Source of the DNA: Candidatus Rifleibacteriota bacterium
Lineage (GTDB): Bacteria; Muiribacteriota; Ozemobacteria; Ozemobacterales; Ozemobacteraceae
Direction of reading: 5' to 3'
Assembly (NCBI GenBank): GCA_028691595.1
Contig: JAQUZA010000002.1
Coordinates: forward strand, 1-38,425
Length of the DNA: 38,425 nt
In this document: piece after piece, positions 2,799 to 38,425 of the stretch
Position numbering within the stretch: position 1 is the first letter of the stretch
How the letters are laid out: each line of letters begins with the position of its first letter
The notes under the pieces: model-generated
Told to the model about the DNA's origin: nothing
Seen by the model: only the letters and a program-made list of their open reading frames with translations
The model's database searches: none
Translations under genes and position numbers: made by a program

Positions 2799-2822
2799 TT
2801 CAGATAGCTCAAAAAAGCTGTT

Positions 2823-3215: not shown

Positions 3216-3290
3216 AAGGTTGCCCCGAAGTTTAAATAATGCTATAAAAACAGTAGCAAATCGTGAATCAGAAGTCAAGCCAGGGTTTAA

Positions 3291-3319
3291 TTGACAGGGC
3301 GCTGGCCGTGCATTAGAAT
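3291..3319 (+). promoter_or_regulatory. Sigma-70-type promoter for the DnaB-like/TPR/HEAT operon
   Basis: TTGACA (3291-3296), exact 17-nt spacer, TAGAAT (3314-3319), about 25 nt upstream of the GTG start. A TTGACT-17-TACTGT candidate on the opposite strand (3250-3278) could serve the Rrf2 gene. Confidence 0.5.
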
Positions 3320-3343
3320 AGTCGTCTGTATCCGGAGGTTCAA

Positions 3344-6783: not shown

Positions 6784-6787
6784 AACA

Positions 6788-14145: not shown

Positions 14146-14679
14146 TCACGGCAGTTTTGCAGCTGGGGTTGCGACCTGATTAACCTGAAGGCCGGCAGTC
14201 ATACTGCCGATAAGACTTTTTGCAGCGCCGGAGATTTCCGTTGCAGAAGCAATCTGCGAAGTCATACTGCCATTTGAGTGCTGCGGGTTGTTCTCTGGTT
14301 TAATTATGTCTGTTGCCGTGGCGGTCAAGGTTTTTTTGCTGGCCTGATCGGGGTTCATAAGGGCCTGCAGAGCTTCTCGGTCGAGTTCTTCAATTGCCAA
14401 TGTGTTGCGTCGGCCGCTCAGATCTTCGGATTCGGTCGCTGTGGGGCTGGCTTCAGGAAAACTTCTGTTTATGCGGCGTAACATCGATCTGGCCGGTTCT
14501 ACCTCGTATCTGAACTCAAAAGTCTCGCCGGGGTTACGCACATCTGCCAACGGATGTCTTATTATTACCGGCACACCCTGGCGGGGTACCCTGATGTAAT
14601 TGTTGATGCTTTGAGCCTCGGTAGATGTCGCAAAACAAAACGCTGCCGTAAAAATTAAAACCACCCGTTTAAGCTGCAT
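14146..14679 (-). CDS. Secreted hypothetical protein
   Basis: Listed ORF 14146..14751 is trimmed to the ATG at 14677-14679, which gives a signal-peptide-like N-terminus MQLKRVVLIFTAAFCFATSTEAQS. It overlaps the upstream MBL gene stop by 11 nt. The C-terminus is low-complexity and no family was recognised. Confidence 0.5.
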   Translation of the reverse strand: MQLKRVVLIFTAAFCFATSTEAQSINNYIRVPRQGVPVIIRHPLADVRNPGETFEFRYEVEPARSMLRRINRSFPEASPTATESEDLSGRRNTLAIEELDREALQALMNPDQASKKTLTATATDIIKPENNPQHSNGSMTSQIASATEISGAAKSLIGSMTAGLQVNQVATPAAKLP

Positions 14680-15550
14680 ACCAGACCGCCAGATTGTCGA
14701 GAACCCTGAATTTAACTTCGCCGCGACGATAAAGTGATGAAAGGTAGCCATTAACCGTTGCGCGGTAGAGAAAGTATTCCCAGCTGATCTTTTTCATGCC
14801 AAAATGGTCGAGAAAGGCTTTGACGACGCGTTCCTGTGACTGAGGAACCTTGAGCAGGTCAAGCATGAATGCCATAGCACTTTCGACATGACTCAGGTTA
14901 CTGGTTATCATGGTCGCAATATTGCCTGTCGGCCCGAAATGGCCGCCAACAAATACCTTTGCCGCAATGGTTCGCAATTTTTCGAGGGTCTGCATGTGGG
15001 CATGCGGGTCGTAGTTGAAAGGGAGACGTTGTTTTTTAAAAAAAGAATCTGGAAAAAGCGTATCAGCGACAAAAGCGGTTCCATCCACCAGAAAACCCTT
15101 CTGGTTAACCGAATGCCCGGGAAGATCGAGAATTTGAATTTTAAGATCATCGAGAACCAGTTCGTTGCCTGTGAACACTTCAACCGGGCTCGGATTCGCC
15201 ATGATAAAGCGGTTCATCAGATCCTGAATGGGGGCTCCGGCAAAAAGAACGGCCGATTGAATGAGTGGTTGCCTGATGGTGGGCGCTTCAAGTGTTGAAG
15301 CCATGATGCGGCAACCGCATTTTTCGCTGAAGTAACTGTTGCCGCCGATGTGGTCGGCATGGGCATGGGTGTTTAAAATACAGGCTACTTCAAAGCGATA
15401 ATCAGATAAAAATTCGTGCAGCTTCCGGGCATATTTTTCATCGATTCCAGAATCGATAAGTGCCACTCGCCCTTCTTCTAGAATAACAACTCCAACATTG
15501 GCAGGCCCGGCAATGCAGAAGGTTCTCTCGCTCAGGCGCGTCAGTTCCAT
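14669..15550 (-). CDS. MBL-fold metallo-hydrolase
   Basis: 293 aa. HxHxDH motif as NTHAHADHIGG, later LPGHS and a C-terminal GH. It starts 2 nt after the upstream stop. Confidence 0.85.
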   Translation of the reverse strand: MELTRLSERTFCIAGPANVGVVILEEGRVALIDSGIDEKYARKLHEFLSDYRFEVACILNTHAHADHIGGNSYFSEKCGCRIMASTLEAPTIRQPLIQSAVLFAGAPIQDLMNRFIMANPSPVEVFTGNELVLDDLKIQILDLPGHSVNQKGFLVDGTAFVADTLFPDSFFKKQRLPFNYDPHAHMQTLEKLRTIAAKVFVGGHFGPTGNIATMITSNLSHVESAMAFMLDLLKVPQSQERVVKAFLDHFGMKKISWEYFLYRATVNGYLSSLYRRGEVKFRVLDNLAVWYAA

Positions 15551-15552
15551 GG

Positions 15553-16011
15553 TCAGGCGGGTGAAATGCCAGCCGACCGCTCTGAAGCACCAACGACCAC
15601 CAGCCCCTCGCTACATTTGCTCAGAACTTCGATGCTGCAGGCCGGTGTATTTGAAAAGCCTATTTCGGGGGCAAGAACTTCAATGTAGTAGGGATTATCG
15701 TGATAAGGAGAAAACTGCGCTTTATAAACCCAGGCGTTAACAGGTTCGCAGCCATCGACTGTGAGTCTGATACGCAGAAATTTAAAAACTTCGCCGCCTT
15801 TGACGATCTTGAATGCCGGGTGCCAGGCCAGTGGTTCGGTGGTGAAGTCCGGGGCGAGTATCACCAGCGGTTTGTCGAGCTGAATGTTTATGGTGCCTTC
15901 TTTGCAATTCCCGACTTCCGGGAAGCACTTGCGAAAAAACGGCATTTGCTCTCTTACGGTGTTCTTCGACTCGCCAAGACCCTTTTGAATTTTCCCTCTG
16001 ATGACTGACAT
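15553..16011 (-). CDS. Small beta-barrel protein resembling CTP-dependent riboflavin kinase (DUF120-like); function tentative
   Basis: 152 aa. IRGKIQKGLGESKN...FPEVGNCKEGTINIQLD...YIEVLAP recalls the archaeal RibK pattern G.V.SG.GEG...PY.GTLNLKLD...IEIIAP, which I am quoting from memory. Confidence 0.45.
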   Translation of the reverse strand: MSVIRGKIQKGLGESKNTVREQMPFFRKCFPEVGNCKEGTINIQLDKPLVILAPDFTTEPLAWHPAFKIVKGGEVFKFLRIRLTVDGCEPVNAWVYKAQFSPYHDNPYYIEVLAPEIGFSNTPACSIEVLSKCSEGLVVVGASERSAGISPA

Positions 16012-18330: not shown

Positions 18331-18852
18331 ATGTCACAGATTCTTCCTTTAATCAGAAGGCTGGCGCAGAACGCCGCAGATCGAAGTGGCGATGGCCGGC
18401 TCGAAAAATTTTTTATCTTCCGATTTGCCGCCAGGTCATACGCCATTCCCGCAGTCGATGTAACTGAAGTCACCGTGCCGGGTTCACTCATCGAGATTGC
18501 CCAGAAGTCTGAACCGGTTATCGGCGTTGTTAACGTTCGTGGCACGGTAATTCCCGTGGTGAACCTGCGCGGCCGCATTGGCATAGATACCGCCTATCTG
18601 GTGAACGAAAACTCACGCCTGCTCATTTTTACCGTCCGGCCAAACTCTTTTGTCGCGATGATCGCTGACGACATCGAATACAGATTGCGTGAAGGCATTA
18701 TTGAACCGATTCTTCCCAATATTGCCGACCCCCAGGAAAAATTTTTCCGGACTGCTGTGATCGATAATCAGCGTTTTCCGGTTTTCATGATTGATACCTG
18801 GCTTGAAAAACCTGAGTTTGAAATTCTTCAGAATGTGGTAGAATCTTACTGA
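18331..18852 (+). CDS. CheW-like coupling-domain protein
   Basis: 173 aa. [23 protein letters not shown]...[22 protein letters not shown]...LLIFTV matches the CheW pattern (f..F.l....yai.i..V.Ei......i.GvinlRG.viPvvdLr). Confidence 0.75.
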
Positions 18853-18875: not shown

Positions 18876-19034
18876 ATGGCTAAGTATGTTTGCACCGTTT
18901 GTGGTTATGAATACGATCCCGCCGTCGGTGATCCCGATGGTGGAATTGCTCCCGGCACCGCATTTGAAGATATCCCGGAAGACTGGGTCTGCCCTGCCTG
19001 CGGAGTCAGCAAAGACCAGTTCGAAAAAATCTGA
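18876..19034 (+). CDS. Rubredoxin (52 aa; below the length cut-off of the supplied ORF track)
   Basis: Hand translation gives [52 protein letters not shown], with the two CxxCG knuckles and the conserved Y.Y.P..GD / F.D.P.DW.CP.CG pattern. GGAGG (18863-18867) lies 8 nt upstream. In-frame ATGs at 18861 and 18870 are alternative starts. TGA at 19032-19034. Confidence 0.85.
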
Positions 19035-19054
19035 TCTGATGCCTTTATTTAAAA

Positions 19055-19088
19055 GGGCCTGCAGCTTTGTCTGCAGGCCCTTTTCTCT
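19055..19088 (+). terminator. Intrinsic terminator after rubredoxin
   Basis: GGGCCTGCAG-CTTTGT-CTGCAGGCCC (perfect 10-bp stem) followed by TTTTCTCTT. Confidence 0.8.
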
Positions 19089-19180
19089 TCATTCAAGAGT
19101 TTCACATGGAACATTTGCTGAAAAGTCGTTACTTCTGCCTACCTTGGTTCGTATCTTGAGTCCGACAGGAGGGGGAGTTC

Positions 19181-22027
19181 TTGCTTAAAAATTACTGGCT
19201 TGGTCTTCTTGCCAGAACTGTATATGGGTTAATTCTGCCGGCATTTCTGCTGCATCTCGCCTTATCAAGCCATTTTGGTCTGGTGCGTGAGCGGCAGATA
19301 GAGTCATGGCGGCAGAAAATGCATGATTCCCTTGATAACCTAAGTAATTATTACCAGGATGATCAGTTCTTTCATGGGTTGCTGCAGACGAATTTTGCCG
19401 CGGCCGATAAAAGTTCCGAGCCCCTCGATGTTATTGCCGGGCGTATTTCAACGCTTAAAAACAGTTTTCCGGGCCTGCTGCGTTTTATTGTTCTCGATAA
19501 AGATGGCCGCATCATCAAGCACCTGTCTGATGAAAACCGTTTTCAATACGTGTTCAAGACCCTTCATCAGACGTTGGGCGAACCCGAATCAATTTATCAG
19601 AGTGGCCGTATCGGCTTGTTGCGCGGTTACTTTGGTCAGTTTCTGATGGAAAAACATCTGTCGGTTCCCCTGCGTCGTGGCTATCTTGGCAGTTGTATCA
19701 GAGCCTCAGAAGACCCACAAAAAGCTCTGCTCTGGTATCAAAGCTATCAGGGAAACCTGTTGATCTGCTTTGTCGGCCGACCGCTGCCCGGCAGGCATAC
19801 AGGCCCGCGCCTCATCGTTGACGGTTTTAATCGTCGCAGTTCTGATCTTCAGCTTGGCTATTTTGACCCGAGTCTGCAGTCTGTTTATGGCCTTGCCGAT
19901 GCGCCAGATCTTGAAGGAGAAGTGGTGATAGAAGCCACGGCTTACTCTAATTCGGCCATCGAATTCAGAAAAACCCCTCATCAGCTGTTGCTTTTCAGAC
20001 AGGTTTCGCCAAGACTGGTAATCTTCAGCCGCCTGGCAAACCAGTTTCACCTGATAGATATCGATAATGAAGTGAGCCGGGTGATGTTCGGGTTGCTCAA
20101 GTGGCTGATTGCAGCGGCCTTCGTTTTTAAGGTTCTTTCTTTGCATTCAAGCAGTCTGTACCTTTCCATCAGGCAGAAACTGCTGCTGCTTTTTCTTTTC
20201 GCTAACGGCTTGCCCCTGATGATTCTGACTGCAACCGGCTATGAATACTTCGAACAGAAAAAAAGTGCTCTGATCAATGCAGTTCATCAACAGTCTTCCC
20301 GGCTTATCAAAGACTTTGACGGTCGCTACCCAGCCGGTCGTGAACTGATGGCTGACAAGCTCAATGACCTGATTCAGCGCAAAAATAAAGATGCCGGATC
20401 GGCAGTGTGGTCGAATAACTCAATCAAAGAACTGGCCGAACTGGTTGACTATTTCCGCCCCAGCGAAAATTACCTTTTTACCACCGCCGGTGAGCAGTTG
20501 ATGCAAAGAAAAACCAATGTCCTGCCAAACTCAGATAAATTCATCCGGGATTTTTTCAGAGGAACCCTTGAATTCTTTAATAATAGGGCAGAAATCTTTT
20601 CTGCCAGCCGAAAAACCATGCTCGAACAGATTTCTGACGAAGCAACTGTCTATCACAGCGTTCTGCGCCAGATTAGCCGGATCGAGCAGCAAAACTATGG
20701 TTCCGGCCTTCACTGGACTTATCTCAACCTTCTTGGTGACCGTGAGAATTTTAAATCGTGGGGATTTGTCGTGGTTGCCTGGAAACCGGAAGAACTACAG
20801 CAGGCCTATCTGAAAGAACAGCTTGCGGCCCTTAATGCCAGAATTGCTCCGCATCAGATTTTTGTCATGGAAACCGGTTCTGAGACGATACTTCCTGAAT
20901 TGACTTCAGGAGATAAGAATCTGAGGCGTATCATGCATCGAACCAGGAGCCGGAAACTTATAACCGAGAATAATCTGCTGTTGAACGGAGAAGAATATAT
21001 TGCCACGGCTTTAAAGGGCATTGAACTCGCTGATGCAGTAATTATGGCCGTTTACCCGAGAAAAATTATTCTCGACCGGATTAATAACCTTTTTTCAAAC
21101 GTCATTCTGGCTGCTTTGGCAAGCCTGCTGCTTGTTGCCATAATTGTGGTATTTTTTTCACGCCGGTTGCTTGTGCCAATTTCGGGGCTGGCCGAAGGTG
21201 TCAGAGCAATAGCCAGAAGAGATTTCAAGCACCGCATCGATTTCGTTTCCAAAGACGAGTTTGGCCAGTTGATTGGTGTTTTTAATGATACGATTGCCGG
21301 CATGCAGGAAATCGCCGTGGGAACAGCGGTACAGAAAAGTCTTCTTCCCCCGGGTAAATGCCACGCCGGCAAGTTTTCTCTTTATGCCAGATCTGAATTC
21401 ATGAGCCGTATGGGTGGAGACTATTTTGATTACTTCAAACTGCCAGAAGAACGGCTTGGCGTATTTTTTGGCGACGTTGCCGGACACGGTATACCTGCGG
21501 CTCTGGTCATGTCGATGGCAAAAGCGGTTGTGGCCAATGCCAGGGCTGCTTTTAACGGCCCGGCAGCTTTGTTACATCGCGCCAATTCAATTTTTCTGCA
21601 CCTCAAAGAAAAGGGCTGGCGGCGCATGATGACCGCCCAGTGCCTTGAACTCGACTGTAACAGCGGAAAATTCAAGCTGGCCAATGCCGGGCAGTGTTTT
21701 CCGGTCATTGTTGGTGAGGATCGTGCCGGTGTGACATATGTTAAGGCCGTCGGCATGCCCCTTGGCAACGTAACAAGAAAACCATATGCTGAAATTACCG
21801 GAGAATTGAAACCCGGTGATACTCTGATTCTCTACACAGATGGGATAATAGAAGCCACAGATGCCTCCGGTAATGTTTTTGATTTTGCGGGTTTCGAAAA
21901 ATTACTGCTCGCCAGCTGGAACTCAGATCTTGAAGTCTGGTGGCAGGATATTTTCAATGGATACTCAGGGTTTGCCGCGGCCCAGGATGACGATGTCACA
22001 ATGCTGATGCTAAAATATGAAAAATAG
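19181..22027 (+). CDS. Membrane receptor A1: 4 TM helices, two large non-cytoplasmic domains, HAMP linker, SpoIIE/PP2C-type Ser/Thr phosphatase domain (motifs intact)
   Basis: 948 aa. TTG start with AGGAGGGGGAG at 19167-19177. TM segments near residues 8-30, 300-322, 335-356 and 635-660. HAMP-like LLVPISGLAEGVRAIARRDFKHRIDFVSKDEFGQLIGVFNDTIAGM. Phosphatase motifs GGDYFDY, FFGDVAGHGIPAA, ANAGQ, LILYTDGIIEA, AQDDDVT. Confidence 0.85.
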   Translation: MLKNYWLGLLARTVYGLILPAFLLHLALSSHFGLVRERQIESWRQKMHDSLDNLSNYYQDDQFFHGLLQTNFAAADKSSEPLDVIAGRISTLKNSFPGLLRFIVLDKDGRIIKHLSDENRFQYVFKTLHQTLGEPESIYQSGRIGLLRGYFGQFLMEKHLSVPLRRGYLGSCIRASEDPQKALLWYQSYQGNLLICFVGRPLPGRHTGPRLIVDGFNRRSSDLQLGYFDPSLQSVYGLADAPDLEGEVVIEATAYSNSAIEFRKTPHQLLLFRQVSPRLVIFSRLANQFHLIDIDNEVSRVMFGLLKWLIAAAFVFKVLSLHSSSLYLSIRQKLLLLFLFANGLPLMILTATGYEYFEQKKSALINAVHQQSSRLIKDFDGRYPAGRELMADKLNDLIQRKNKDAGSAVWSNNSIKELAELVDYFRPSENYLFTTAGEQLMQRKTNVLPNSDKFIRDFFRGTLEFFNNRAEIFSASRKTMLEQISDEATVYHSVLRQISRIEQQNYGSGLHWTYLNLLGDRENFKSWGFVVVAWKPEELQQAYLKEQLAALNARIAPHQIFVMETGSETILPELTSGDKNLRRIMHRTRSRKLITENNLLLNGEEYIATALKGIELADAVIMAVYPRKIILDRINNLFSNVILAALASLLLVAIIVVFFSRRLLVPISGLAEGVRAIARRDFKHRIDFVSKDEFGQLIGVFNDTIAGMQEIAVGTAVQKSLLPPGKCHAGKFSLYARSEFMSRMGGDYFDYFKLPEERLGVFFGDVAGHGIPAALVMSMAKAVVANARAAFNGPAALLHRANSIFLHLKEKGWRRMMTAQCLELDCNSGKFKLANAGQCFPVIVGEDRAGVTYVKAVGMPLGNVTRKPYAEITGELKPGDTLILYTDGIIEATDASGNVFDFAGFEKLLLASWNSDLEVWWQDIFNGYSGFAAAQDDDVTMLMLKYEK

Positions 22028-24941
22028 TGAAACAAAAATCTGTAGCGACATAACCGCCTGGCTGGCGTTTGTCTTTTTTATGGTGCTGCTGCCTCTTATC
22101 GGCGGCTGGCAGGGCTGGCGATATGTTGAAACAATGCGGCGTGAAAGTAGATTACGCCAGTTTCAGGTTGAGACCACCAATAAAATTGAACATCTGCAGC
22201 TCGCCGTAGACAGTGGCAAATATGCCTGCCTGCGTATAAATGAAGTTTTTGAGAGCAGTTCAAGCTGTGAAGATCTGAAGACCGGCATCGAAAAACTGAA
22301 TCGCGAAATGTCGCTTGAACTTAAATACCTGATCTGGGACGACAAAGGCGGCGTTTATACGTCGAATTTTGATCATGCCGGTCTAAATGCCGACTGGGTT
22401 CTTGCCTTTTCCACATTTCAATCTATCCTTACAGGAAAAGGCGGAACAAAATCGGCTTCTTCGACCGCCAACCTGCGGCGAATCTACGGGCCCCAGTTTT
22501 TGCCGGAGGTATTCACTGAGTGTTATAACGGCCGGCATATTCAGCCTCTTTATGGCGATTCAACCTCTGATGGCAGGCTTTCCTGGGTCAAAATACGCAA
22601 GAGAAAGCTTGGCCTGAGCATATTCTTTTCGCGCCGGGCCCTTGAAGGAATGCCAGGTATCGATCATCAGATCATCGAAGTTACCAGAAATTCGCCAATG
22701 CAGATTCTGACGATTCGCGATGGTGTACTGAGAGTCCCGGCCGGTCTGGAACTGTCTGAAGATGATAAAAAAAGAATATGTGAAAGCAGGCAAAGCCCTT
22801 TCAGAATAAACGGCTGGTATGTTTTTAAAGGGCTTATTCATACTAGCATCGATGCCGTCTGCCTTTTACCGGCGAGCGTTATCGAAAGCTCTTCGTCGAC
22901 CTCTTTATGGCAAATTTTTCTGTCAGGGCTGTTGTTGCTGACAATCTGGCTGGTTTATCACAGTTTCATGGTCTTTTGCCGGGGTCGAAATACAAAACTG
23001 AGTATCAGAAAACAGCTTATAATACTGTTCGTTCTCTCTAATGCTTTGTCGCTAAGCATTCTTGCCATTCTCGGGTATGATTACCTCAAAGAATTCGAAA
23101 CCAGCCTGCAGGCCGAAGCTTTCAGCAGCGGCATGACTTATCTTCAGAGTATTGACGAGATGCATGTTTCTGAAATGTCGCTGCAACTGCGGCGTATCGA
23201 AAAGGCCATTGCTGAGCTCGAAAACTCTCTGAAAAGCGGTCCACCTGACAAACAGATGCTGGTTCGTTTTCTTGATGCCCAGAGGCCTGCGCCTTTCAGA
23301 TTAATTCTGGTCGGCAGCCATACTCCATTCATCGGCAGTGAATATGGAATAATGAAAGACGGTGAATTTGTCGACCTGATTCGCGAATTTGAAGGCTTTG
23401 ACAAGCAGATGAAGATTCTTGTCGATGCAATGGGTAAGCTTGGGCGTTACTACCTTTCAATGCTTAACCGCGAGAGTCTCGAAGAAATGGTGGTTACCCA
23501 GGTTGAGCTTATTGCCGAATCTCTGGGGCAACTGCGATCGATTGAGATGTTTCAGGAGTTTTTTGCAGCCACCGGGTCTTTCTGGCAGTGGGGAATGGGC
23601 TGGCGCTATTACCCGGCTTTCATTCAAGTGCTCAACCTTTTTGGCAACATGTCAGACTATGTTTTTCTCTACCTCTGGGAACCCAGAGCCCTCGAATTTG
23701 CCTATCTGACCAGGCTTTACTCTGACCTTAACCGTAATCCACTCGGTTTGAAAATTATGGGCGTGCATGAAGATTTCAGATACTCGTTTCCGCCAGAACT
23801 GCTGCAGAATGAGCAGCTGCTGGCTTACTCGGGCAGACTGCGTGAAAAAACCGGAACTGAAATAGATTTCTGTGACTGGAACGGGCAAAAGCATCTGCTC
23901 ATGGGTCTTAAATGCTCATCGCTTGCAAGTATGCGTCTTCTGGGGCTTTTTCCGGTCAGTTCTATCGAACAACGTCTCCGCGAAAAATTCTGGCTTTTTT
24001 GCGCTCTCGGAATGGTCAGCATGCTGGTGTCACTGGCCCTGAGCCTGGTGGTTTCCCGCTCTATTCTGCGACCCCTGGGTGAATTGCAGACCGGGGTTCT
24101 GGCTTTGCAGAAACAGGATTTTGCCTATCGGCTTCCTGACCTTGGCGGCGATGAATTCGGCCATCTGGCACAGATTTTCAATACCACCCTGGTTGATCTC
24201 GAAGAGCTGCACACTGCCTCGATGGTTCAAGAGAAGCTCATCGACAATATGAGCGAAATTCAACAGCATGGCTCATTGAGATTTTTCGGTCAAAGCCGCG
24301 CTTTGACGAATTTCGGCGGAGATTTCATGGCAGTTAATCCTTTTGCTTCAAGATACCTGGGTATCTTTATCGGCGATGTTGCCGGCAGTGGCGTGGCTTC
24401 AACCTTGATTATGGCTTTTGTTAAAGCCTGTATCATGCAGCTTGAAGACCTTTATTCTGATCCTGGTGCCGTGCTGGCACGTATCGATATGCTGTTGCGC
24501 TCATGCAGCAGCGAAACCCGCCAGCGCAATTTTATGTCGCTGCAATACGCTCTTCTCGATGCCGAAACAAACGTTGTAACAATTGCCAGTGCCGGCCATT
24601 GCTACCCTCTGTTGCTGCAAACCGATGGCTGTAAGGTCATTGATATGCCTTCAACCCCTCTGGGAGCCGGCAAAAATCTTAAAGTGGCCCGATGTGAAGT
24701 CAGCCTGAAACAGGGAGAAAAGCTGGTGCTCTACACGGCCGGGCTCTACAGAAATGCTGAACTCGGCTTTGAAGAACTCGTCAATCTGATTGCCGGAACA
24801 GACGAACCCTGCCCTGAAAAATTCTGTCGCAGCGTTGATAAAACACTTGAACATATCAGGGCTGGCCGGCCCGGAAACGACGATCAGACGATTGTGGTCA
24901 TTGCTGCATCTGCCAGTCAGATTGAACAACTTGAAGGGTAA
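22017..24941 (+). CDS. Membrane receptor B1: same architecture as A1, HAMP plus SpoIIE/PP2C-like domain with one acidic motif substituted
   Basis: 974 aa. The ATG at 22017 overlaps the A1 3' end by 11 nt. HAMP-like LRPLGELQTGVLALQKQDFAYRLPDLGGDEFGHLAQIFNTTLVDL. GGDFMAV, FIGDVAGSGVAS, ASAGH and GNDDQT are kept, but LYTDG is replaced by LYTAG. Confidence 0.85.
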   Translation: MKNSETKICSDITAWLAFVFFMVLLPLIGGWQGWRYVETMRRESRLRQFQVETTNKIEHLQLAVDSGKYACLRINEVFESSSSCEDLKTGIEKLNREMSLELKYLIWDDKGGVYTSNFDHAGLNADWVLAFSTFQSILTGKGGTKSASSTANLRRIYGPQFLPEVFTECYNGRHIQPLYGDSTSDGRLSWVKIRKRKLGLSIFFSRRALEGMPGIDHQIIEVTRNSPMQILTIRDGVLRVPAGLELSEDDKKRICESRQSPFRINGWYVFKGLIHTSIDAVCLLPASVIESSSSTSLWQIFLSGLLLLTIWLVYHSFMVFCRGRNTKLSIRKQLIILFVLSNALSLSILAILGYDYLKEFETSLQAEAFSSGMTYLQSIDEMHVSEMSLQLRRIEKAIAELENSLKSGPPDKQMLVRFLDAQRPAPFRLILVGSHTPFIGSEYGIMKDGEFVDLIREFEGFDKQMKILVDAMGKLGRYYLSMLNRESLEEMVVTQVELIAESLGQLRSIEMFQEFFAATGSFWQWGMGWRYYPAFIQVLNLFGNMSDYVFLYLWEPRALEFAYLTRLYSDLNRNPLGLKIMGVHEDFRYSFPPELLQNEQLLAYSGRLREKTGTEIDFCDWNGQKHLLMGLKCSSLASMRLLGLFPVSSIEQRLREKFWLFCALGMVSMLVSLALSLVVSRSILRPLGELQTGVLALQKQDFAYRLPDLGGDEFGHLAQIFNTTLVDLEELHTASMVQEKLIDNMSEIQQHGSLRFFGQSRALTNFGGDFMAVNPFASRYLGIFIGDVAGSGVASTLIMAFVKACIMQLEDLYSDPGAVLARIDMLLRSCSSETRQRNFMSLQYALLDAETNVVTIASAGHCYPLLLQTDGCKVIDMPSTPLGAGKNLKVARCEVSLKQGEKLVLYTAGLYRNAELGFEELVNLIAGTDEPCPEKFCRSVDKTLEHIRAGRPGNDDQTIVVIAASASQIEQLEG

Positions 24942-24972
24942 TTATCCCGATGTACGGTTTGCCGGAAAAAGG

Positions 24973-24978
24973 TATAAT
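24973..24978 (+). promoter_or_regulatory. -10 element (TATAAT) in the spacer between the two receptor gene pairs
   Basis: GGTATAAT at 24971-24978, 82 nt upstream of the A2 ATG. Only a poor -35 (TGTACG) is present. Confidence 0.35.
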
Positions 24979-25059
24979 TATCTTTAGATGTTTCTCTGTT
25001 GCCGCGCTTGTTCTGTGACTGATAAACGTTCGGTAAGAATTAGACTATAAAGGATAAAA

Positions 25060-27969
25060 ATGCCGGGATTTTTACAGAAAATGACCAGATGGGCGGCTTT
25101 GGCGGCCTTTGGTCTGCTGCTGCCCTGCTGGCTCGCCTGGTCGATGCTGATCAGCCATTTTCAGCTGCAGAGAAACCAGGCTGCCGAAGAGGTTTTTGAT
25201 CATCTTTCACAGCATCTGGTTACCCTTGAGAATTATCATGATGACCGGGTGTTTTTTCATGCTCTCCTGCAGAAAAATTTTGCCGGCATCGACAATAAAC
25301 CCGAATCGGCGCAGTTGCTTGCCAGAAAGATCGCCGCCTTTCGCCGCCTGTTTTCGGGGCGGCTCAAATTCATCGTTTACGGTTCAGATGGCTCCATAAA
25401 CCGTGATTTAACTGATGAAAAAAGATTTCATTACATTCTTAAAGCCATGTTTATCGTTATGCACGAGCTGAAAAAGCTCTACGTCTCAGATACTGATGCC
25501 GACCCTTCATCTTCTGCGGCCGTTACCTCTCGCATGACGCTTTTGCGCGGCTATTTCGGTTCTTTTCTTGACCAGAAACTTATGCTTGAACCATTTCGTT
25601 CAGAGTACCAGGGGCGTTGCCTGTTTGTCAGTGACGAACCAGATAAGCACCTTCTCTGGTACTATCCTGGCACAGACTTTTCTCTGGCCTGTTTTGTCGA
25701 TAAGGCACTTCTCGGCAAAAACCTCGGGCCGCAGATGATCATCAGAAAGTTTAACTCCAGGGGCTCAGAGGCACGGCTTGGCTATATTCAAACCATCTCC
25801 TACAAGAGCTTTGGATTACCGCCTGACCCCGCTGCCGAAACTGAGATCAAGCTCGAGGCCGCAAAATTCGAGAGCTATGCCATCGCCTCGCGTGAAAGCC
25901 GCAATTTTTTCGTGCAATTTCGCCAGACTTCGCCTGAGATGATTGTTGTCAGTTATCAGAGCAGCAAGAATCTGGCTTCACCATCTGTCGCCGCTGTTTC
26001 AGCGTTGTTTGGCCCTTCAAGATGGTTGGTGCTGTCATTTTTTCTGGTTTTTGTCTGCAGTCTTCGTTATCGAAGATTTGCCATGCCTGTGCAGCAGAAG
26101 ATTCTGGTGTTGTTTCTTTTTGCCAATGGCCTGCCTCTGCTGATGATGGCTTCGACAGGTTATGAATTTTTCAATGAGAAGAAAAAAGACCTTGTTAATG
26201 CCACCCACAATGAATCTGTGAGAATTCTTAAAGAATTCGATGTCCGCTTCCCTGAAGTTCAATCAAGGCTGGCCCGTGAATTGAACGCCTTTATCGATGA
26301 ACGTAATCGTCTTTATAAGGGTAACCGCTGGCCGGTTGCCGAAATTGAAAGCCTGAAGCAATTGACCGCCCGCATTGCACCCCAGGAAGGAATCCTTCTC
26401 AACGATGAGGGTAACTTGGTTTTTAAGCTGTCGCTGGCCTTCAACAGCTCTGGCAACATGATGAAGGATCTGTTGCTGAAAGGCCTGGATTTTTTTAACA
26501 AAACCAATCTGCAGCAAAGTTCTCGTATCAGCAAGACCCTGCTTGACGATATTTCTTCTGAAGACCTTCTTTTACACGATTTTCTCTGGTATCTGGGCCG
26601 ATTTGTGGTCTTGAGTGCCGGAGACACCGGTCGCACATCATATATGCGCCTGCTGGGCGGTAATGAGCCCGGCAGCGAGGAATATCACGCCTGGGGAGCA
26701 TATGCCATTACCTGGAACCCGACCGCCTTCATGCGCACTTTTATTCGCGAAAAGCTTCTTGAAACCTCCGGGGCAATTTCTCCAAGACAACTGCTTGTTT
26801 TTGACCGGCTCAATGAAAGTATCTTCTCGCTAAAACCAGCTGATAACCGCGATATACGCCGCCTTTTCAGGCGAACTGTCAGCAGAAAACTGGTAACCTA
26901 TGAAAATCTTGAAATTGACGGGCAAAAATATCTCTTCACATCGATTGCCGGCAATGAAATTGCTGATGGCATTCTGGCGGCGATTTATCCTCAGAGCCTG
27001 ATCGATGAAAAGATCGATGCTTTAAAAGTGACTTTTCTGGTGGTTGGCCTGATTATGGCCTTTATTCTTTTCAGAGTGGCCCGGGTTTTTGCAGCCAGGT
27101 TGCTGGTGCCCGTTCTTGAACTCGATAAGGGTATTGCCCACATGCGTTCAAGAGATTTTGACTACCGCATCAGTTACAGATCAGCTGATGAGTTTGGCCT
27201 GCTTATCAATACTTTTAATCGCACCCTCGAAGGCATGAAAGAACTGGCTGTCGGCACAGCTGTTCAAGAAAGCCTTCTTCCATCAGGCCGCTTCGCTGAA
27301 GCAAAAACAGTGCTCTTTGCGCGGTCATTGTTCATGAGCAAAATGGGTGGTGACTATTTTGACTATTATTCGCTGCCGGAAAATAGACTTGGCATCTTTT
27401 TCGGTGATGTGGCCGGTCATGGTATTCCGGCTGCCATGATCATGGCAATGATCAAGGCTGTTATTGCCGCTGCCGATAAAACCGTCGCCGGGCCGCAGAA
27501 TCTGCTCGCCGGGGCTAACCAGGTGTTGCTTGAACTGAAAAAGCGCAACTGGCGGCGCATGATGACTGCGGTCTGCTTTGATTTTAACCTTCTAAGCGGC
27601 GAATTCACCTTTGCCAATGCCGGGCATTGTTACCCGGCCATTGTAAAATCAGGTGGTACAGACATCAGGATGCTCGAATTCGGCGGTATGCCTCTCGGCA
27701 GCAGCAGCAAAAAGCAGTTGCCGACAATAGCCGATCGTCTGGCACCTGGCGAAACACTCATTCTCTATACTGACGGTGTTGTTGAGGCTGTTGGCATGAA
27801 TGAAGAACAGTTTGGCTACCGGCGCTTTGCCACTTTGCTTCAAACTGCCTGGGATAAAGATCTGGAAGTATACTGGCAGAACATCATCGATGGCTATCGC
27901 AGCTGGGCAGTGGCTCAGGATGACGACCTTACCTTTCTGCTGCTGCGTCAGGGGGGCACCGATGACTGA
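25060..27969 (+). CDS. Membrane receptor A2: paralogue of A1 (HAMP plus intact SpoIIE/PP2C phosphatase)
   Basis: 969 aa. Shares long strings with A1 (LFLFANGLPL, AVGTAVQ.SLLP, GGDYFDY, FFGDVAGHGIPAA, WRRMMTA, TLILYTDG, AQDDD). AAAGGA lies 5 nt upstream of the ATG. Confidence 0.85.
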   Translation: MPGFLQKMTRWAALAAFGLLLPCWLAWSMLISHFQLQRNQAAEEVFDHLSQHLVTLENYHDDRVFFHALLQKNFAGIDNKPESAQLLARKIAAFRRLFSGRLKFIVYGSDGSINRDLTDEKRFHYILKAMFIVMHELKKLYVSDTDADPSSSAAVTSRMTLLRGYFGSFLDQKLMLEPFRSEYQGRCLFVSDEPDKHLLWYYPGTDFSLACFVDKALLGKNLGPQMIIRKFNSRGSEARLGYIQTISYKSFGLPPDPAAETEIKLEAAKFESYAIASRESRNFFVQFRQTSPEMIVVSYQSSKNLASPSVAAVSALFGPSRWLVLSFFLVFVCSLRYRRFAMPVQQKILVLFLFANGLPLLMMASTGYEFFNEKKKDLVNATHNESVRILKEFDVRFPEVQSRLARELNAFIDERNRLYKGNRWPVAEIESLKQLTARIAPQEGILLNDEGNLVFKLSLAFNSSGNMMKDLLLKGLDFFNKTNLQQSSRISKTLLDDISSEDLLLHDFLWYLGRFVVLSAGDTGRTSYMRLLGGNEPGSEEYHAWGAYAITWNPTAFMRTFIREKLLETSGAISPRQLLVFDRLNESIFSLKPADNRDIRRLFRRTVSRKLVTYENLEIDGQKYLFTSIAGNEIADGILAAIYPQSLIDEKIDALKVTFLVVGLIMAFILFRVARVFAARLLVPVLELDKGIAHMRSRDFDYRISYRSADEFGLLINTFNRTLEGMKELAVGTAVQESLLPSGRFAEAKTVLFARSLFMSKMGGDYFDYYSLPENRLGIFFGDVAGHGIPAAMIMAMIKAVIAAADKTVAGPQNLLAGANQVLLELKKRNWRRMMTAVCFDFNLLSGEFTFANAGHCYPAIVKSGGTDIRMLEFGGMPLGSSSKKQLPTIADRLAPGETLILYTDGVVEAVGMNEEQFGYRRFATLLQTAWDKDLEVYWQNIIDGYRSWAVAQDDDLTFLLLRQGGTDD

Positions 27970-30835
27970 AAAACCCGTTACCCGCTGGTTGATACTTAAT
28001 TTTTCGCTGCTGTTTCTGCCAATGCTGATAATAGTTGCCGGAATCTACTACATTGTTTCTCTGCAGCAGAACGAAAGAATCAGAAATTTCGAAATTGAAG
28101 CCGCCGAAATGCTTGAATCGCTGCGCTACTATTCAGGCACCGAAAAGTATATCTGCAGCACCCTTGCCGGTATTTTTTCAGAGAACCGGGAACCAGAAAA
28201 GCTTAAAGATGCGGTTGCCAGGTTTACAGCCGACCACGCACTGGATCTGCAGTATTACATCAACAATGCCGATGGCAGCATTTTTTACAGCAATTTTCCC
28301 GTCGAACGACTGCCGGGAGATGTTTCATGGGCGTTTAAGTCGATGAATATTCTCAAAAATGACGGTTACGCCGGCGGCGAGCGCAAAATCCCCAAAGATG
28401 TCTACGCCAATCTCAGATCGGTTTATGGTCAGCATTTCTTTCCCAGATACTATAACAGGTGCTTTTCTGGTAAGAATCTGACTCTTAGACGCACTTCGGC
28501 TGCTGCTGATAAACCTATGCTGTGGCTGAACGTCAGCGAAACAACGGGCCTCTCGGTCTTTGTTCCGCCTGAAGCCATCGACAGCTTCTGCGGTGTCCGC
28601 TATCATGCCCGCCAGCACCGTGAGAAGCTCATCGCCGGCTTTATCAGAAATGGCAACGTCGACTGTTATGACCCTTTGTTGAGCACCGCCGTCAGTAATC
28701 AGGCTGAAATGTTGCAGAACAGCCTGAGCAGCATAGTCAAATTGAGTGACTACTACGTTTTGCTCAACTACATAGATTCGACAATGATGGTTTTTTGTGG
28801 CATAAAACGCGAAGATATCGAGCGGGTAAGCTTTACTTATACGACTCTGGTCATGATTCTAACATTGTTTATCGGCATGGCCATTTTTGCCGGCATGAGC
28901 TACCTGGTCGTGGTGAGGGGCAAGGTTCTATCGCTGCGCCTGAAGCTGCAGCTGCTGGTTCTTTTCGTTTCTTCGAATGCCATGGCAGGTTTTGTTCTAT
29001 ATACTATTGGTTCCGATTATCTGCAACAATTCAGGTCTGGTCTCATTAACGATGCATATTATGATGGCATGGCCTACCTGCAGAGCATTGATGAATTGTA
29101 CAGCAATGAACTTACGGTGCAAAAAGAACGCCTCGACAGGCATTTGCTTGATTTTAAGCGGAGTTTAAAGAAAAAGGGGCCTTCAAAGCGTTCAGTTCTT
29201 AGATTCATTAAAAGTCAGAATCCAAGGCCGCACGGCTTTTTTCTCGTTGCCAGCAGCACCGGTATTGTGGCCGGTGACCGCGGAATTCTCAAAGATGAAA
29301 AAGTCTACGAAAAATTTACTTCAAAATTTCACGAAGACAAATTGCGCATCAATACCATGAAGGCAATGTCCAAAATTGGCAACTTTGTTCTGGCCTCACT
29401 GAATAAACAGACAATCACCAGTAAGGCCGGCACTGAGGCCGAACTGATAACCGAAACGGTGGCGCAGCAAAGCCCGGCCGATCTCATCAGAAAATTTGCC
29501 GATCAGGGTTCATTTTCAGAATGGGGAGTCGGTGAACGGATTCACCCGACATTTGTCAGCCTGATGAAGCTTTTTGACAAGGTAATGTATGACTATATGC
29601 TCCTCTACCTCTGGGACTCAGACGACCTCGAAATCTCATTCATCGAAAGAGTATTTCTAAATCTGGGCAGAAACGAACTTGGACTGCAGGTTATGATCGT
29701 TGACGAAAAATTTGTGCGCGGTTACCCCGTAGATATCCTCACAAACCCACGTCTGAGAAATTTTGCCCTTAAACTTCGCGACCGTAGTATCACCCGCCCT
29801 GAGTTGTGCGATTATAAAGGCTCAGAGTTTCTAATGCTTGGGCATAAATGCGTGGCAATGAAAAATATCAGACTGCTGGGTCTTTTTCCCATTGAAAAAA
29901 TCGCTGTTCAGGTTGGCGAAAAAACATGGTTGCTTGCCTTGCTCGCCCTGGTAAGCTTTTTGATTTCTATTTCAATCAGTCTTTTCATTTCGGGAAGCAT
30001 TTTGCGCCCTCTTGGTGAGTTACAGACCGGTGTTACCGCTTTGAATGAAAGAAATTTTTCCTGGCGGGTGCCTGACCTTGGGGGTGACGAGTTCGGTCAC
30101 CTTGCCGCTATTTTTAATGAGACGCTGATTGACCTTGAAGAACTGCACGTTGCTTCTCAAGTTCAGGAAAAGCTGTTAACTCAGATGCAGGGCCCTTCTT
30201 CTGTGGGTTGCCTCAGCTTTTTATGCGTGCTGGGTGCCAGTTCGGCTTATGGCGGCGACTATTTTGATCTGATCGATATTGATGCTTCAGAAAGGTCCAT
30301 AATTTTTGGCAGGGTGACCGAACCGGGTGTGGCAGGCAGTCTGGTGCTGGCTTTTGTAAAATCAGCCACCATGCAGCTGCAGAGCAGGTACCCGCGACCC
30401 GATCTGCTGGCTGCTGAACTCAACGCTCTGCTTGCCGGCAGCAGCGAAAGCGGCGGCAATAAAACCATGCAACTGCAGAATCTTCTGCTTCACTCTGACG
30501 GAAAAATTGAATTTGCCGGGGCAGGCGTGCCAACCATGCTGCTTTTCGATAGTGTTTCCGGCAAAATTGCCTCGATCGAATACGATAGCGCTGAACTAGG
30601 CAAAACCACCGGCAGAAGCTTTAAGCTTACTCAGGTGCAGCTTGAACCAGGTCAGGTTTTTATTATGACAACTGCAATTTTTAAGAATTCAGATTGTCTC
30701 AGCACAGAGCTATGTCGCTGCCAGAACCCATCATTAGACCAGATTTGCCGTGTTTTTGCCGGATGCTGTGCTGCTGGTGGCAATGAGGTGCCCCCGGTTC
30801 TCGTGATTGCTCATGAAAAAGCGCCAGCTGTCTGA
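27962..30835 (+). CDS. Membrane receptor B2: paralogue of B1 with HAMP plus a degenerate SpoIIE/PP2C-like domain (probable pseudophosphatase)
   Basis: Listed ORF 27800..30835 is trimmed to the ATG at 27962 (ATGACTGA overlap with the A2 stop, AGGGGGG 5 nt upstream), giving MTEKPVTRWLILNFSLLFLPML with a TM helix, as in B1. HAMP block LRPLGELQTGVTALNERNFSWRVPDLGGDEFGHLAAIFNETLIDL. GGDYFDL is kept, but GDVAG becomes GRVTEPGVAG, LYTDG becomes IMTTAIF, and the terminal DD motif is absent. Confidence 0.8.
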   Translation: MTEKPVTRWLILNFSLLFLPMLIIVAGIYYIVSLQQNERIRNFEIEAAEMLESLRYYSGTEKYICSTLAGIFSENREPEKLKDAVARFTADHALDLQYYINNADGSIFYSNFPVERLPGDVSWAFKSMNILKNDGYAGGERKIPKDVYANLRSVYGQHFFPRYYNRCFSGKNLTLRRTSAAADKPMLWLNVSETTGLSVFVPPEAIDSFCGVRYHARQHREKLIAGFIRNGNVDCYDPLLSTAVSNQAEMLQNSLSSIVKLSDYYVLLNYIDSTMMVFCGIKREDIERVSFTYTTLVMILTLFIGMAIFAGMSYLVVVRGKVLSLRLKLQLLVLFVSSNAMAGFVLYTIGSDYLQQFRSGLINDAYYDGMAYLQSIDELYSNELTVQKERLDRHLLDFKRSLKKKGPSKRSVLRFIKSQNPRPHGFFLVASSTGIVAGDRGILKDEKVYEKFTSKFHEDKLRINTMKAMSKIGNFVLASLNKQTITSKAGTEAELITETVAQQSPADLIRKFADQGSFSEWGVGERIHPTFVSLMKLFDKVMYDYMLLYLWDSDDLEISFIERVFLNLGRNELGLQVMIVDEKFVRGYPVDILTNPRLRNFALKLRDRSITRPELCDYKGSEFLMLGHKCVAMKNIRLLGLFPIEKIAVQVGEKTWLLALLALVSFLISISISLFISGSILRPLGELQTGVTALNERNFSWRVPDLGGDEFGHLAAIFNETLIDLEELHVASQVQEKLLTQMQGPSSVGCLSFLCVLGASSAYGGDYFDLIDIDASERSIIFGRVTEPGVAGSLVLAFVKSATMQLQSRYPRPDLLAAELNALLAGSSESGGNKTMQLQNLLLHSDGKIEFAGAGVPTMLLFDSVSGKIASIEYDSAELGKTTGRSFKLTQVQLEPGQVFIMTTAIFKNSDCLSTELCRCQNPSLDQICRVFAGCCAAGGNEVPPVLVIAHEKAPAV

Positions 30836-30847
30836 GTTATTAAAGCC

Positions 30848-31654
30848 TCAGATCGCTTCGCCTAAATTTATCAGCCTGTTGATGCGGTTTTCATACATGT
30901 GTGACTGTATCGAACTGGTCTCTTCACAAGTTTTTCCAGCGAATTTCCCGGCCCACTCGAAACCGGCTTTCAGCAACATCGGCAGCAGCATACACCTCAG
31001 TCGCAAGTCGTTGCGGGTTTTAACCGTTTCTTTAAGAAAAGCCTGAGCCGGGCCGCTTGAACTGTTTATGGTTCTGATCAACCACCAGCGAAGATCATCA
31101 TTAAAAGGCCCGCTGAATAATTCGGCCAGCTTCGCCCGCGCCGCTCTTTCGCGTTCGATCAGGGCACATGCCTGAACCGTCTGTGGTTGTGGCTTGCGCT
31201 CTATGTTTCCTTCAACAAGCAGAAAAAGCATTTCGATATGGGTGGGATCGGCTGTATTAAAAGATCTGGCAATTATTGATGCCTGCTCATCGATACTTCT
31301 GGCTTTGGCAAATTCAGAATTCAGGTATTCGAAGGTTTCATGGGCAAACTGGATCGGCAGTTCGGCAAAGCGCAGAATTTCTGACCAGTCATCACGCGAG
31401 CCCGACAGCTGGTGAAAAAATGCCAGCTTTTCTGGCAGTGAAGCTGCTATTGAACTGATAATTTCATGCAGAATTTTTCTGGCCGGGTATTCGGGAGAAG
31501 TTTCGAGCAGATCTATATAGGCGATAAAGTCCTGCCAGGTCTGCAGTTCTTCAGCAGAACAGGAGGCGCAGGCATATTGACCGCTGGCAATTTCTTTTAA
31601 ACGACGGTCTTTGATAATTCCCAGTAATTGCAGAAATCTTCGTATCGCTTCCAT
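30848..31654 (-). CDS. Hypothetical protein, no family recognised
   Basis: 268-aa ORF with ordinary soluble-protein composition, convergent with B2 (12-nt gap). No competing ORF of comparable length. Confidence 0.55.
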   Translation of the reverse strand: MEAIRRFLQLLGIIKDRRLKEIASGQYACASCSAEELQTWQDFIAYIDLLETSPEYPARKILHEIISSIAASLPEKLAFFHQLSGSRDDWSEILRFAELPIQFAHETFEYLNSEFAKARSIDEQASIIARSFNTADPTHIEMLFLLVEGNIERKPQPQTVQACALIERERAARAKLAELFSGPFNDDLRWWLIRTINSSSGPAQAFLKETVKTRNDLRLRCMLLPMLLKAGFEWAGKFAGKTCEETSSIQSHMYENRINRLINLGEAI

Positions 31655-37533: not shown

Positions 37534-37890
37534 ATGATCAAGCGCATTTTAACAGTGCTTCTGGCCTTCGCCCTCGTGGCGGGGGCCTCTTTCGCCTATC
37601 GTATGCCCTCCCGGGGTGAAGTTACCGCCGAAATCGGTCTGAATGTTCGCACCGGGCCAGGCACCAGTTATTCAATTCTGACTTCGGTGCCGAAGGGTAC
37701 TGCGGTGCAGATTCTGGCCATCAGCGGCAACTGGTATAAGGTGAACGTTTCGTCTTATAACGGCGTTTTTGTGCATTCTGCCTATATTAAAGTCACTGAG
37801 ACCACTGAGATTGACGACCCGAAAGCAGATAAAGAAGCGACCAAAAGGTTTCTTCCGACTTTGCAGAATGTCGATCCGGCAGCCCGTTAG
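37534..37890 (+). CDS. Small secreted SH3b-domain protein
   Basis: 118 aa. Signal peptide MIKRILTVLLAFALVAGASFA. SH3b block LNVRTGPGTSYSILTSVPKGTAVQILAISGNWYKVNVSSYNGVFVHSAYI. Confidence 0.7.
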   Translation: MIKRILTVLLAFALVAGASFAYRMPSRGEVTAEIGLNVRTGPGTSYSILTSVPKGTAVQILAISGNWYKVNVSSYNGVFVHSAYIKVTETTEIDDPKADKEATKRFLPTLQNVDPAAR

Positions 37891-37916
37891 AATCATGATT
37901 GACAAGCAGACATGAC

Positions 37917-38425
37917 ATGCATAATCTTCTGACAGAGCTTCGTTGCCGGCGTGGCAGCGTAGCGGTGGTCATTGCCGGCATATTTCTGGCTTTACTGGTC
38001 GCTTTCAGCGCTTTCATGAAATTTTCGACCAGTCGGCAATACGCCACGAAAAAGCTGAACAAGGTGTTGCTGGCGCGGGAGTTTTCTGCCGCGCTGGCAA
38101 CGCTTGCCTGCCACCAGCTCAAACAAAAGGATATCAGAGATCTTTCGGGCAAGCTTGTGCAAAAGCTTGCATTGCCGCTTTCGAGCATGGAAAAAGAAGC
38201 CTCTGATAAAATTGTGTTCGTCGAGCCTGCCAGGAGCATTGTTGAAAAACTGAAGGCTGCCAACAGTGAGTTGCGCGATTTGAAATTTGAAATCAGCTGG
38301 AAGCTTCACAAGGCCGATTTTGAGCCCTGTCTTGCAGCATATCCCCGCGAAAAAACGGGTATTCTGAGAATTCCAATTTTTGTTTCCTACAAGGCACCGG
38401 GGTCGAACGAATTTGTCAAAGAAGA
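37917..38425 (+). CDS. Membrane-anchored hypothetical protein, 3' end outside window
   Basis: Not in the ORF track because there is no stop. Hand translation from the ATG at 37917 runs 169 codons to the window edge without a stop: MHNLLTELRCRRGSVAVVIAGIFLALLVAFSAFMKFSTSRQYATKKLNKVLLAREF... It has an N-terminal TM helix and is on the same strand as the upstream cluster. It competes with antisense ORFs 37793..38263 and 37992..38309. Confidence 0.5.
   Translation, partial: MHNLLTELRCRRGSVAVVIAGIFLALLVAFSAFMKFSTSRQYATKKLNKVLLAREFSAALATLACHQLKQKDIRDLSGKLVQKLALPLSSMEKEASDKIVFVEPARSIVEKLKAANSELRDLKFEISWKLHKADFEPCLAAYPREKTGILRIPIFVSYKAPGSNEFVKE

Follow-up and report, generated by a model that had tools for sequence, protein, structure and literature searches.

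Sensor phosphatases of the RsbU/SpoIIE family act at the head of partner-switching cascades, through which sigma factors, biofilm formation and development are governed, and the current model of phosphatase activation is a symmetric homodimer arising by linker-driven dimerisation. In the PPM phosphatases of this subfamily, a coiled coil of the linker and dimerisation of the PP2C domain via helices alpha0-alpha2 recruit metal and switch the enzyme on, and HAMP-linked members have been predicted to be activated likewise (PMC12143880). Chlamydia trachomatis RsbU (CT588) and its adjacent paralogue CT589 are neighbouring membrane PP2C paralogues with periplasmic sensor domains; RsbU has all the Mn-binding aspartates and dephosphorylates the STAS protein RsbV1, while CT589 is devoid of the metal ligands (PMC4552016). 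A 2026 review still listed CT589/CTL0852 as uncharacterised (PMC13463777). Here, we describe a locus in a stretch of DNA of 38,425 nt (hereafter the window; contig JAQUZA010000002.1, assembly GCA_028691595.1) from Candidatus Rifleibacteriota bacterium, a member of Ozemobacteraceae. Positions 19181-30835 of the window are filled by four consecutive plus-strand open reading frames (ORFs) in the order A1-B1-A2-B2, each of which encodes a HAMP-PP2C protein with four transmembrane (TM) helices. This locus consists of two copies of an ancient two-gene module of Riflebacteria (Ozemobacteraceae), in which an A gene is followed by an overlapping B gene, and the product of the B gene may be a catalytically silent partner of the phosphatase encoded by the A gene. 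These organisms are uncultured, and all of the evidence is genomic. The four ORFs had been located at the same positions and on the same strand in an earlier note on this DNA, which spoke of giant receptors; the 4-TM HAMP-PP2C layout that it described is indeed shared by the four proteins, and our quibble is with the size word, proteins of 950-975 aa being large rather than giant.

The pairing was followed in 18 genome loci, several contigs obtained via exact protein look-up and 45 metagenome loci, and the counts were taken on 37 non-redundant loci carrying family genes. Full-length relatives of A1, B1 and B2 are confined to metagenome-assembled genomes (MAGs) labelled Candidatus Riflebacteria, Rifleibacteriota or Ozemobacteraceae, with a few labelled 'Erysipelotrichia', and the orthologues of A1 are 45-81% identical to it, 81% being the value for the closest relative. 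Within the window, identity amounts to 40% between A1 and A2, to about 33% between B1 and B2 and to about 20% between A and B. A neighbour-joining tree (Poisson distances, 50 bootstraps; a distance tree only, with Kimura distances saturated) recovers each of the A1, A2, B1 and B2 clades in 47-50 of 50 bootstraps and both A1+A2 and B1+B2 in 50 of 50, with congruent branching in all four subtrees. The gene order A1-B1-A2-B2 is the rule among the 37 loci. Wherever a B gene is preceded by 600 nt of sequence or more, an A gene lies directly upstream of it. The single A gene without a downstream B gene proved to be an artefact due to a run of Ns, and the apparently broken genes (B1 of locus L010, A1 and A2 of locus L015) also reflect runs of Ns in the stored contigs. 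Where a quartet is split, the break falls between the pairs: in MAG JAHISQ, A1-B1 occupies the conserved CheW-rubredoxin site (L003/L011) and A2-B2 a separate contig (L020), A2-B2 stands alone in L022, L040/L041 and L053, and L021 is an extra A2-like/B2-like pair. Since the clades, the gene order and the motif states described below recur in 37 loci, this pattern is not due to chance. The two subfamilies that the earlier note had told apart by eye, and its view of the pair as an inherited unit, are thereby borne out, and no independent occurrence of A and B genes was found in these loci.

The age of the pair can be judged from a second quartet (L023, 8001-18943) in the Kow0029 MAG (GCA_054681895.1), which is also the source of L001. 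This quartet follows a rubrerythrin gene and encodes 4-TM HAMP-PP2C proteins of 980-997 aa. Its genes 1 and 3 are sister to all A proteins and its gene 2 is sister to all B proteins, which places the A/B split before the duplications of the pair, of which at least two were independent.

The A and B genes are coupled by overlap. The overlaps that the earlier note had seen at the two within-pair junctions (Table 1) are typical of the relatives, in which an overlap of 4-17 nt is present at 43 of 44 A-to-B junctions. The B2 start at ATG 27962 agrees with the starts of its orthologues, and the ORF start at 27800 is a mechanical maximum only. A1 starts with TTG, preceded by AGGAGG at 19167-19172, and ends with TAG. 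The B1 and A2 genes also overlap or abut in most relatives, typically by -4 or -8 nt, and the 118 nt between them in the window is the largest B-to-A gap among the loci. The corresponding spacer of the closest relative is 71 nt long, contains no TATAAT and does not align to that of the window. A consensus promoter scan called no promoter in the 118-nt spacer, and promoter-like sites are not enriched in the region (21 vs 14 +/- 3.9). A conserved internal promoter in the spacer was therefore rejected, on the grounds of the missing scan call, the failure to align with the closest relative and the spacerless junctions of most relatives. As far as the compared sequences go, the spacer and its TATAAT are peculiar to the window, and the ancestral arrangement is one tightly packed four-gene operon; the spacer and TATAAT pointed out in the earlier note are present, but the idea that a promoter-bearing spacer sets two units apart had to be abandoned. 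Because B1 and A2 overlap in most relatives as well, overlap alone is no proof that A and B are the partners, and the case for an A:B partnership lies in the fact that the junction surviving rearrangement is A-B.

The four proteins share an unusual architecture. A Kyte-Doolittle scan finds four hydrophobic segments per protein, at residues of about 10-30, 300-318, 334-352 and 641-679, and the HAMP domain starts where TM4 ends in all four. The scores of HAMP (PF00672) are 38.1 bits in A1, 43.2 in B1, 27.9 in A2 and 30.0 in B2, each above the gathering score of 25 bits. With HAMP in the cytoplasm, two domains of about 270-290 aa per chain are consequently placed outside the membrane, periplasmic domains 1 and 2 (PD1 and PD2). 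In an AlphaFold2 (AF2) model of A1 residues 1-665 (pLDDT 82.7, pTM 0.68), each of them is formed by a long helix, which prolongs the TM helix before it, and then two alpha/beta modules. A Foldseek search of the PDB with this model puts dCache ligand-binding domains at the top (probability 1.0, E 1e-6 to 1e-4), among them those of Tlp3 (6W3X, E 2.6e-6), McpH, Mlp37, PctA/B and HK1S-Z proteins including HK1S-Z16, with modest TM-scores of 0.3-0.4 and with the match not localised to PD1 or PD2. Full-length models of chemoreceptors (MCPs) align across 350-450 columns, through the TM helix and HAMP, which fits PD2-TM4(-HAMP) as the canonical dCache-TM-HAMP unit. The modelling thus supports the two separate extracytoplasmic domains per chain that the earlier note had deduced, and suggests a dCache-like fold for them, the assignment of PD1 being based on its secondary-structure pattern alone. 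Pfam Cache models give no match at E<=1 in 42 A-type members or at E<=0.1 in the four window proteins, and the sensor domains are therefore unclassified by sequence. By hhalign, PD1 of A is homologous to PD1 of B (96.6%) and PD2 of A to PD2 of B (95.4%), indicating that the 4-TM architecture is older than the A/B split. No homology between PD1 and PD2 is detectable by hhalign (probability <3%), and an internal tandem repeat was rejected on this value.

A phmmer search with residues 1-660 of A1 against 1.84 billion cluster representatives yielded 298 clusters at E<=1e-3. Nearly all of them have a length of 930-1000 aa and align collinearly with the query, so that the 4-TM double-sensor layout characterises a coherent family of moderate size. 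A search of the representative library with the same residues of A1 yields mainly A-like proteins, and the pairing evidence covers the fetched loci only. In the giant predicted protein P0114 (4564 aa; cluster mate P0283, 6872 aa), 43 separate stretches match A1 residues 1-660; it could represent several tandem family genes read through into a single ORF, for example owing to a different genetic code or to an artefact of assembly or annotation, or a true repeat protein.

The A and B proteins differ in the active site of the PP2C domain. The SpoIIE model (PF07228, gathering score 25 bits) scores 134.4 bits in A1, 132.8 bits in A2 and 102.4 bits in B1, whereas B2 reaches 29.0 bits, over profile positions 9-130 of 192 only; at least a dozen B2 orthologues have no Pfam SpoIIE match and are annotated merely as 'HAMP domain-containing protein'. 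In the C-terminal domain of Chlamydia RsbU (RsbU-Ct), the metal-coordinating residues D440, D461, D582 and D634 are essential for activity (PMC4552016). The motifs GGD, GD.xGHG, TDG and DD.T correspond to them by motif and spacing, the Asp of TDG being the counterpart of D582. In an alignment to Rv1364c (3KE6), GGDWFD, GDVVGHG and YTDG are shared, and the aligned region ends before DD.T. A1 and A2 carry GGDYFDY, GDVAGHG, YTDG and QDDD.T, the last of which reads QDDDLT in A2. B1 has GGDFMAV in place of GGDxxD, GDVAGSG with GSG in place of GHG, YTAG (24732-24743) without the TDG Asp, and GNDDQT; the GD and DD are kept. B2 has GGDYFDL, GRVTEPG (30308-30328), TTAI (30668-30679) and GNEVPP (30779-30796). 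The earlier note had read the A proteins as intact, B1 as lacking one motif and B2 as lacking most. This is true in the window, and the division into intact A and degenerate B proved to be family-wide. In 102 distinct C-terminal domains (48 A, 25 B1 and 29 B2), all five Asp residues are kept in 48/48 A-type proteins, and the TDG Asp is absent from 25/25 B1 proteins, which have Gly, Ala or Asn instead, and from 28/29 B2 proteins, that is, from 53/54 B proteins in total. To judge from these residues, A is predicted to be a competent Mn/Mg-dependent Ser/Thr phosphatase, and the TDG Asp, a predicted ligand of the M1 metal site, has been lost from essentially every B protein, a loss that marks the B lineage as a whole.

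The other residues have been lost to various degrees. In the B1 family, the GGD and GD aspartates and DD.T are retained in 25/25; in most cases, other residues stand in place of the His in GHG and of the second Asp in GGDxxD. In B2 of the window and its near relatives, GD has given way to G-R or G-H and DD has gone as well; B2 of more distant genera still has GDVAGSG. The B-like gene 2 of the L023 quartet keeps the Asp at the TDG position and has GE in place of GD, and may represent an earlier stage of degeneration. Retention of GGD, GD and DD.T throughout B1, together with a SpoIIE score of 102 bits, would be in line with B, or at least B1, being a still active phosphatase with altered metal coordination or substrate preference, in which case the pair would consist of two catalytically different sensors. 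This seems improbable: the residue missing from nearly all B proteins is the counterpart of an essential ligand of RsbU-Ct, the general-acid-like His is usually replaced, nearly all ligands are gone from B2, and the C-terminal half of the PP2C domain is the least conserved region of B. We infer that catalysis has been lost in B1.

Conservation is also distributed differently along the two proteins, as found by region-by-region comparison of identity among orthologues. The best-conserved parts of A proteins are the linker and PP2C (about 71%). In B proteins they are TM4-HAMP (67-78%, above A; 72-78% for HAMP itself), followed by PD2 (52-59%), and the C-terminal half of PP2C is the poorest part, at 37% in B1 and 21% in B2. 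Between B2 of the window and that of the closest relative, HAMP is 92% identical and the C-terminal half of PP2C 36%. In B, the alpha1/alpha2 switch and dimer helices (Bradshaw model) lie in the better-conserved half of PP2C, the N-terminal one; the N:C ratio of identity is 1.4-1.9 in B against 1.0-1.15 in A. The conserved HAMP and second sensor, combined with the poor conservation of the C-terminal half of PP2C, argue that B proteins are functional and probably non-catalytic.

The progressive erosion of the B2 active site and the many B2 orthologues without a Pfam SpoIIE signal might be taken to mean that B genes are decaying duplicates, functionless relics of A. Such a reading is scarcely credible in view of the full-length intact B ORFs in all lineages, of HAMP domains better conserved than those of A, and of B1 and B2 clades as old as the A1 and A2 clades. 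The AF2 model of full-length B2 is also confident (pLDDT 84.1; the input alignment included B1 homologues). Its C-terminal domain superposes by Foldseek on the PP2C domains of Pseudomonas aeruginosa RssB (3F79) and RsbX (3W40) with a TM-score of 0.74, and on those of SiaA and the E. coli RssB pseudo-phosphatase (6Z4E) with TM-scores of 0.66 and 0.67, respectively, so the PP2C fold is predicted to be retained in B2.

Co-inheritance, translational coupling, a dead but folded PP2C domain in B and the conserved HAMP and PD2 of B make an A:B complex the most economical model. From these sequence features, the best explanation would be a receptor phosphatase in the form of an A:B heterodimer or higher hetero-oligomer, to which we give an even chance of being right. 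HAMP works as a dimeric four-helix bundle. Both chains would reside in the inner membrane with the N-terminus inside, in the order TM1, PD1, TM2-TM3 hairpin, dCache-like PD2, TM4, HAMP, helical linker and PP2C. Overlapping translation would supply A and B jointly, and the two would assemble in parallel, with likely contacts between the TM helices, in a mixed HAMP four-helix bundle, in the linker coiled coil and on the alpha0-alpha2 face of PP2C. HAMP and the linker would then combine the ligand states of as many as four different periplasmic modules and thereby switch the single catalytic site of A; the PP2C domain of B would be a non-catalytic dimerisation and allosteric partner, so that both chains would sense and transmit and only A would catalyse. 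The substrate would probably be a phosphorylated STAS-type partner-switching protein encoded elsewhere. The strict form of this model, close to the obligate hetero-oligomer suggested in the earlier note, is an obligate asymmetric heterodimer with four sensor modules, a single catalytic site and, as allosteric dimerisation partner, B's dead PP2C domain; it is put forward tentatively.

Several observations weigh against an A:B complex of this kind. Between A and B, no opposite-charge complementarity is seen in TM4-HAMP-linker, where there are only a few subfamily-specific charges. The tight coupling spans B1-A2 in most relatives too. B1, having three of the four ligand positions, might retain some activity. 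Neither a STAS nor an RsbW gene came up in Pfam scans of the 38-kb window and of the flanks of the Riflebacteria quartets. A STAS gene is located directly upstream of the distant pair L024, and a phmmer search of all loci with its product found nothing beside the Riflebacteria quartets. In addition, the overlapping pair of L024 (4798-10868) has all ligands in both members, and another distant relative, L025 (1-10976), has a quartet with the divergent member ahead of the intact one; degeneracy is therefore not intrinsic to pairing. The lack of charge complementarity and the operon-wide coupling would suit the main alternative, four independent homodimeric receptors, as HAMP receptors usually are homodimeric. 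The overlap would then mean co-expression only, A1 and A2 would be ordinary sensor phosphatases, and B would be a pseudo-phosphatase with its own output: it might sequester the phospho-substrate, or serve as an adaptor or anti-phosphatase in the manner of E. coli RssB's pseudo-phosphatase domain, a degenerate PP2C with a non-catalytic role that is among the Foldseek matches of B2. We regard such independent receptors as rather unlikely, for they leave unexplained why B is never found without A immediately upstream in the 37 loci, even after splitting of the quartet, and why the dimer and switch helices of the B PP2C domain are better retained. On balance, we infer a physical A:B complex.

The features of the locus are collected in Table 1.

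Table 1. Positions in the window of the four receptor genes, their junctions and the parts of A1
Feature	Position	Strand	Description
Hairpin terminator	19051..19084	+	Strong; 14-bp stem then T-rich tail; 3' of rubredoxin gene
A1	19181..22027	+	948 aa; 4 TM, two periplasmic domains, HAMP, intact SpoIIE/PP2C
A1 PD1, aa 36-297	19286..20071	+	Long helix then two alpha/beta modules; no Pfam family
A1 TM2/short basic cytoplasmic loop/TM3 hairpin, aa 298-353	20072..20239	+	Helices 294-322 and 330-381 in AF2 model
A1 PD2, aa 354-638	20240..21094	+	Predicted dCache-like; canonical site preceding TM4 and HAMP
A1 HAMP, aa 658-706	21152..21298	+	PF00672, 38 bits
A1 SpoIIE/PP2C, aa 755-946	21443..22018	+	All metal-ligand motifs present
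A1 motif GGD	21413-21433	+	
A1 motif GDVAGHG	21470-21490	+	
A1 motif YTDG	21833-21844	+	
A1 motif QDDDVT	21983-22000	+	
A1/B1 overlap	22017..22027	+	11 nt, ATGAAAAATAG; B1 ATG 22017 inside A1 end
B1	22017..24941	+	974 aa; A1-like layout; HAMP 24051-24203; SpoIIE 24351-24902
B1-A2 spacer	24942..25059	+	118 nt; TATAAT at 24973-24978
A2	25060..27969	+	969 aa; intact active site; HAMP 27088-27234; SpoIIE 27376-27948
A2/B2 overlap	27962..27969	+	8 nt, ATGACTGA
B2	27962..30835	+	957 aa; heavily eroded active site; HAMP 29984-30139; partial SpoIIE match 30305-30673

The window has a G+C content of about 48%, and its gene content is that of an ordinary chromosome (Pfam scans), including FtsH, UDP-GlcNAc 2-epimerase, RNase PH, RdgB/Ham1 and an M42 peptidase; scanning for tRNAs and Rfam families gave no hits in the window. 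A stand-alone CheW-like gene (18331-18852) and a gene for a 52-aa rubredoxin (18877-19034) are located directly upstream of A1, a placement kept in three relatives (L001, L003 and L026). The terminator in Table 1 intervenes between them and A1 and marks the upstream limit of the transcription unit of the quartet. The 3' neighbour of the last B gene varies: it encodes a 320-aa HisKA/HATPase_c protein in the closest relative (L026, 21652-22614) and SlyX in L001 (21619-21816) and in L003 (15920-16117), where the last B gene is B1, and in the window B2 is followed by an ORF of 268 aa on the minus strand (30848-31654) without a Pfam match. Other ORFs without a Pfam match, all on the minus strand, are found at 14146-14751, 15553-16011 and 37793-38263; the first two adjoin a gene of the metallo-beta-lactamase fold, also in L001, L003 and L026. 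A same-strand run at 934-8188 combines genes for an NFACT/RqcH-like protein, a DnaB_C/KaiC-like P-loop ATPase, a 628-aa TPR protein and a HEAT-repeat protein, an unusual grouping.

Among the known systems, several resemble the proteins of this locus in part. Phosphatases of the B. subtilis RsbU/SpoIIE type belong to the same PP2C subfamily and have an N-terminal sensor, a helical linker, alpha0-alpha2 dimerisation and metal recruitment (PMC12143880); they are homodimers with two active sites, whereas the complex proposed here would be asymmetric, with one live and one dead domain. SiaA of P. aeruginosa, a HAMP-PP2C biofilm regulator, has the same order of TM, HAMP and PP2C, is the best NCBIfam hit and matches by both sequence and fold (PDB 6K4E). 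It has, however, neither a double periplasmic sensor nor a paired pseudo-enzyme, and its model NF038263 scores only 58, 45, 46 and 32 bits in the four proteins against a cut-off of 700 bits, so the family proteins are not SiaA equivalogs. The PP2C domain of RssB is the best structural match to B2, and the E. coli protein is a pseudo-phosphatase, but RssB is a soluble response regulator. The dCache receptors (Tlp3, PctA/B, Mlp37, McpH and the HK1S-Z kinases) have a similar stalk helix, two PAS-like modules, a TM helix and HAMP; unlike them, the proteins described here have a second, non-homologous periplasmic domain ahead of this unit, behind a TM hairpin, and no Pfam Cache match. A dCache domain joined to a serine phosphatase output is an already known architecture class, and so is HAMP-PP2C. 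The layout of four TM helices with two unrelated periplasmic domains is an uncommon route to several inputs per receptor.

The closest counterpart of the pair is that of Chlamydia. In CT588 and CT589 of Chlamydia, there is just one periplasmic domain per protein, with two TM helices. As in Chlamydia, adjacent paralogues with TM, sensor and PP2C domains are found here, one of which is without metal ligands, and the combination of an active enzyme and a degenerate transmembrane paralogue next to it is thus known already, although the earlier note was not aware of a description of the paired arrangement. The Riflebacteria proteins differ in that each chain has four TM helices and two periplasmic domains unrelated to each other; their genes overlap, the pair has undergone several duplications, and the pattern holds across a candidate phylum. 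Given the 2-TM and 4-TM architectures, the two pairings are likely to be independently derived. What is new in Riflebacteria is the 4-TM two-sensor layout, the overlapping pair as a conserved and repeatedly duplicated heritable unit, the loss of one metal ligand, diagnostic of the lineage as a whole, with progressive erosion thereafter, and the asymmetric conservation that reveals a constrained dead partner. In this lineage, two questions can be put to a natural test: whether a dimer can do with a single active site, and in what way pseudo-phosphatase domains control the proteins they are paired with. If A and B do form a complex, this pseudo-enzyme/enzyme receptor design would be one not demonstrated before among bacterial PPM phosphatases, and it would provide a working hypothesis for the role, uncharacterised for a decade, of Chlamydia CT589 beside RsbU.

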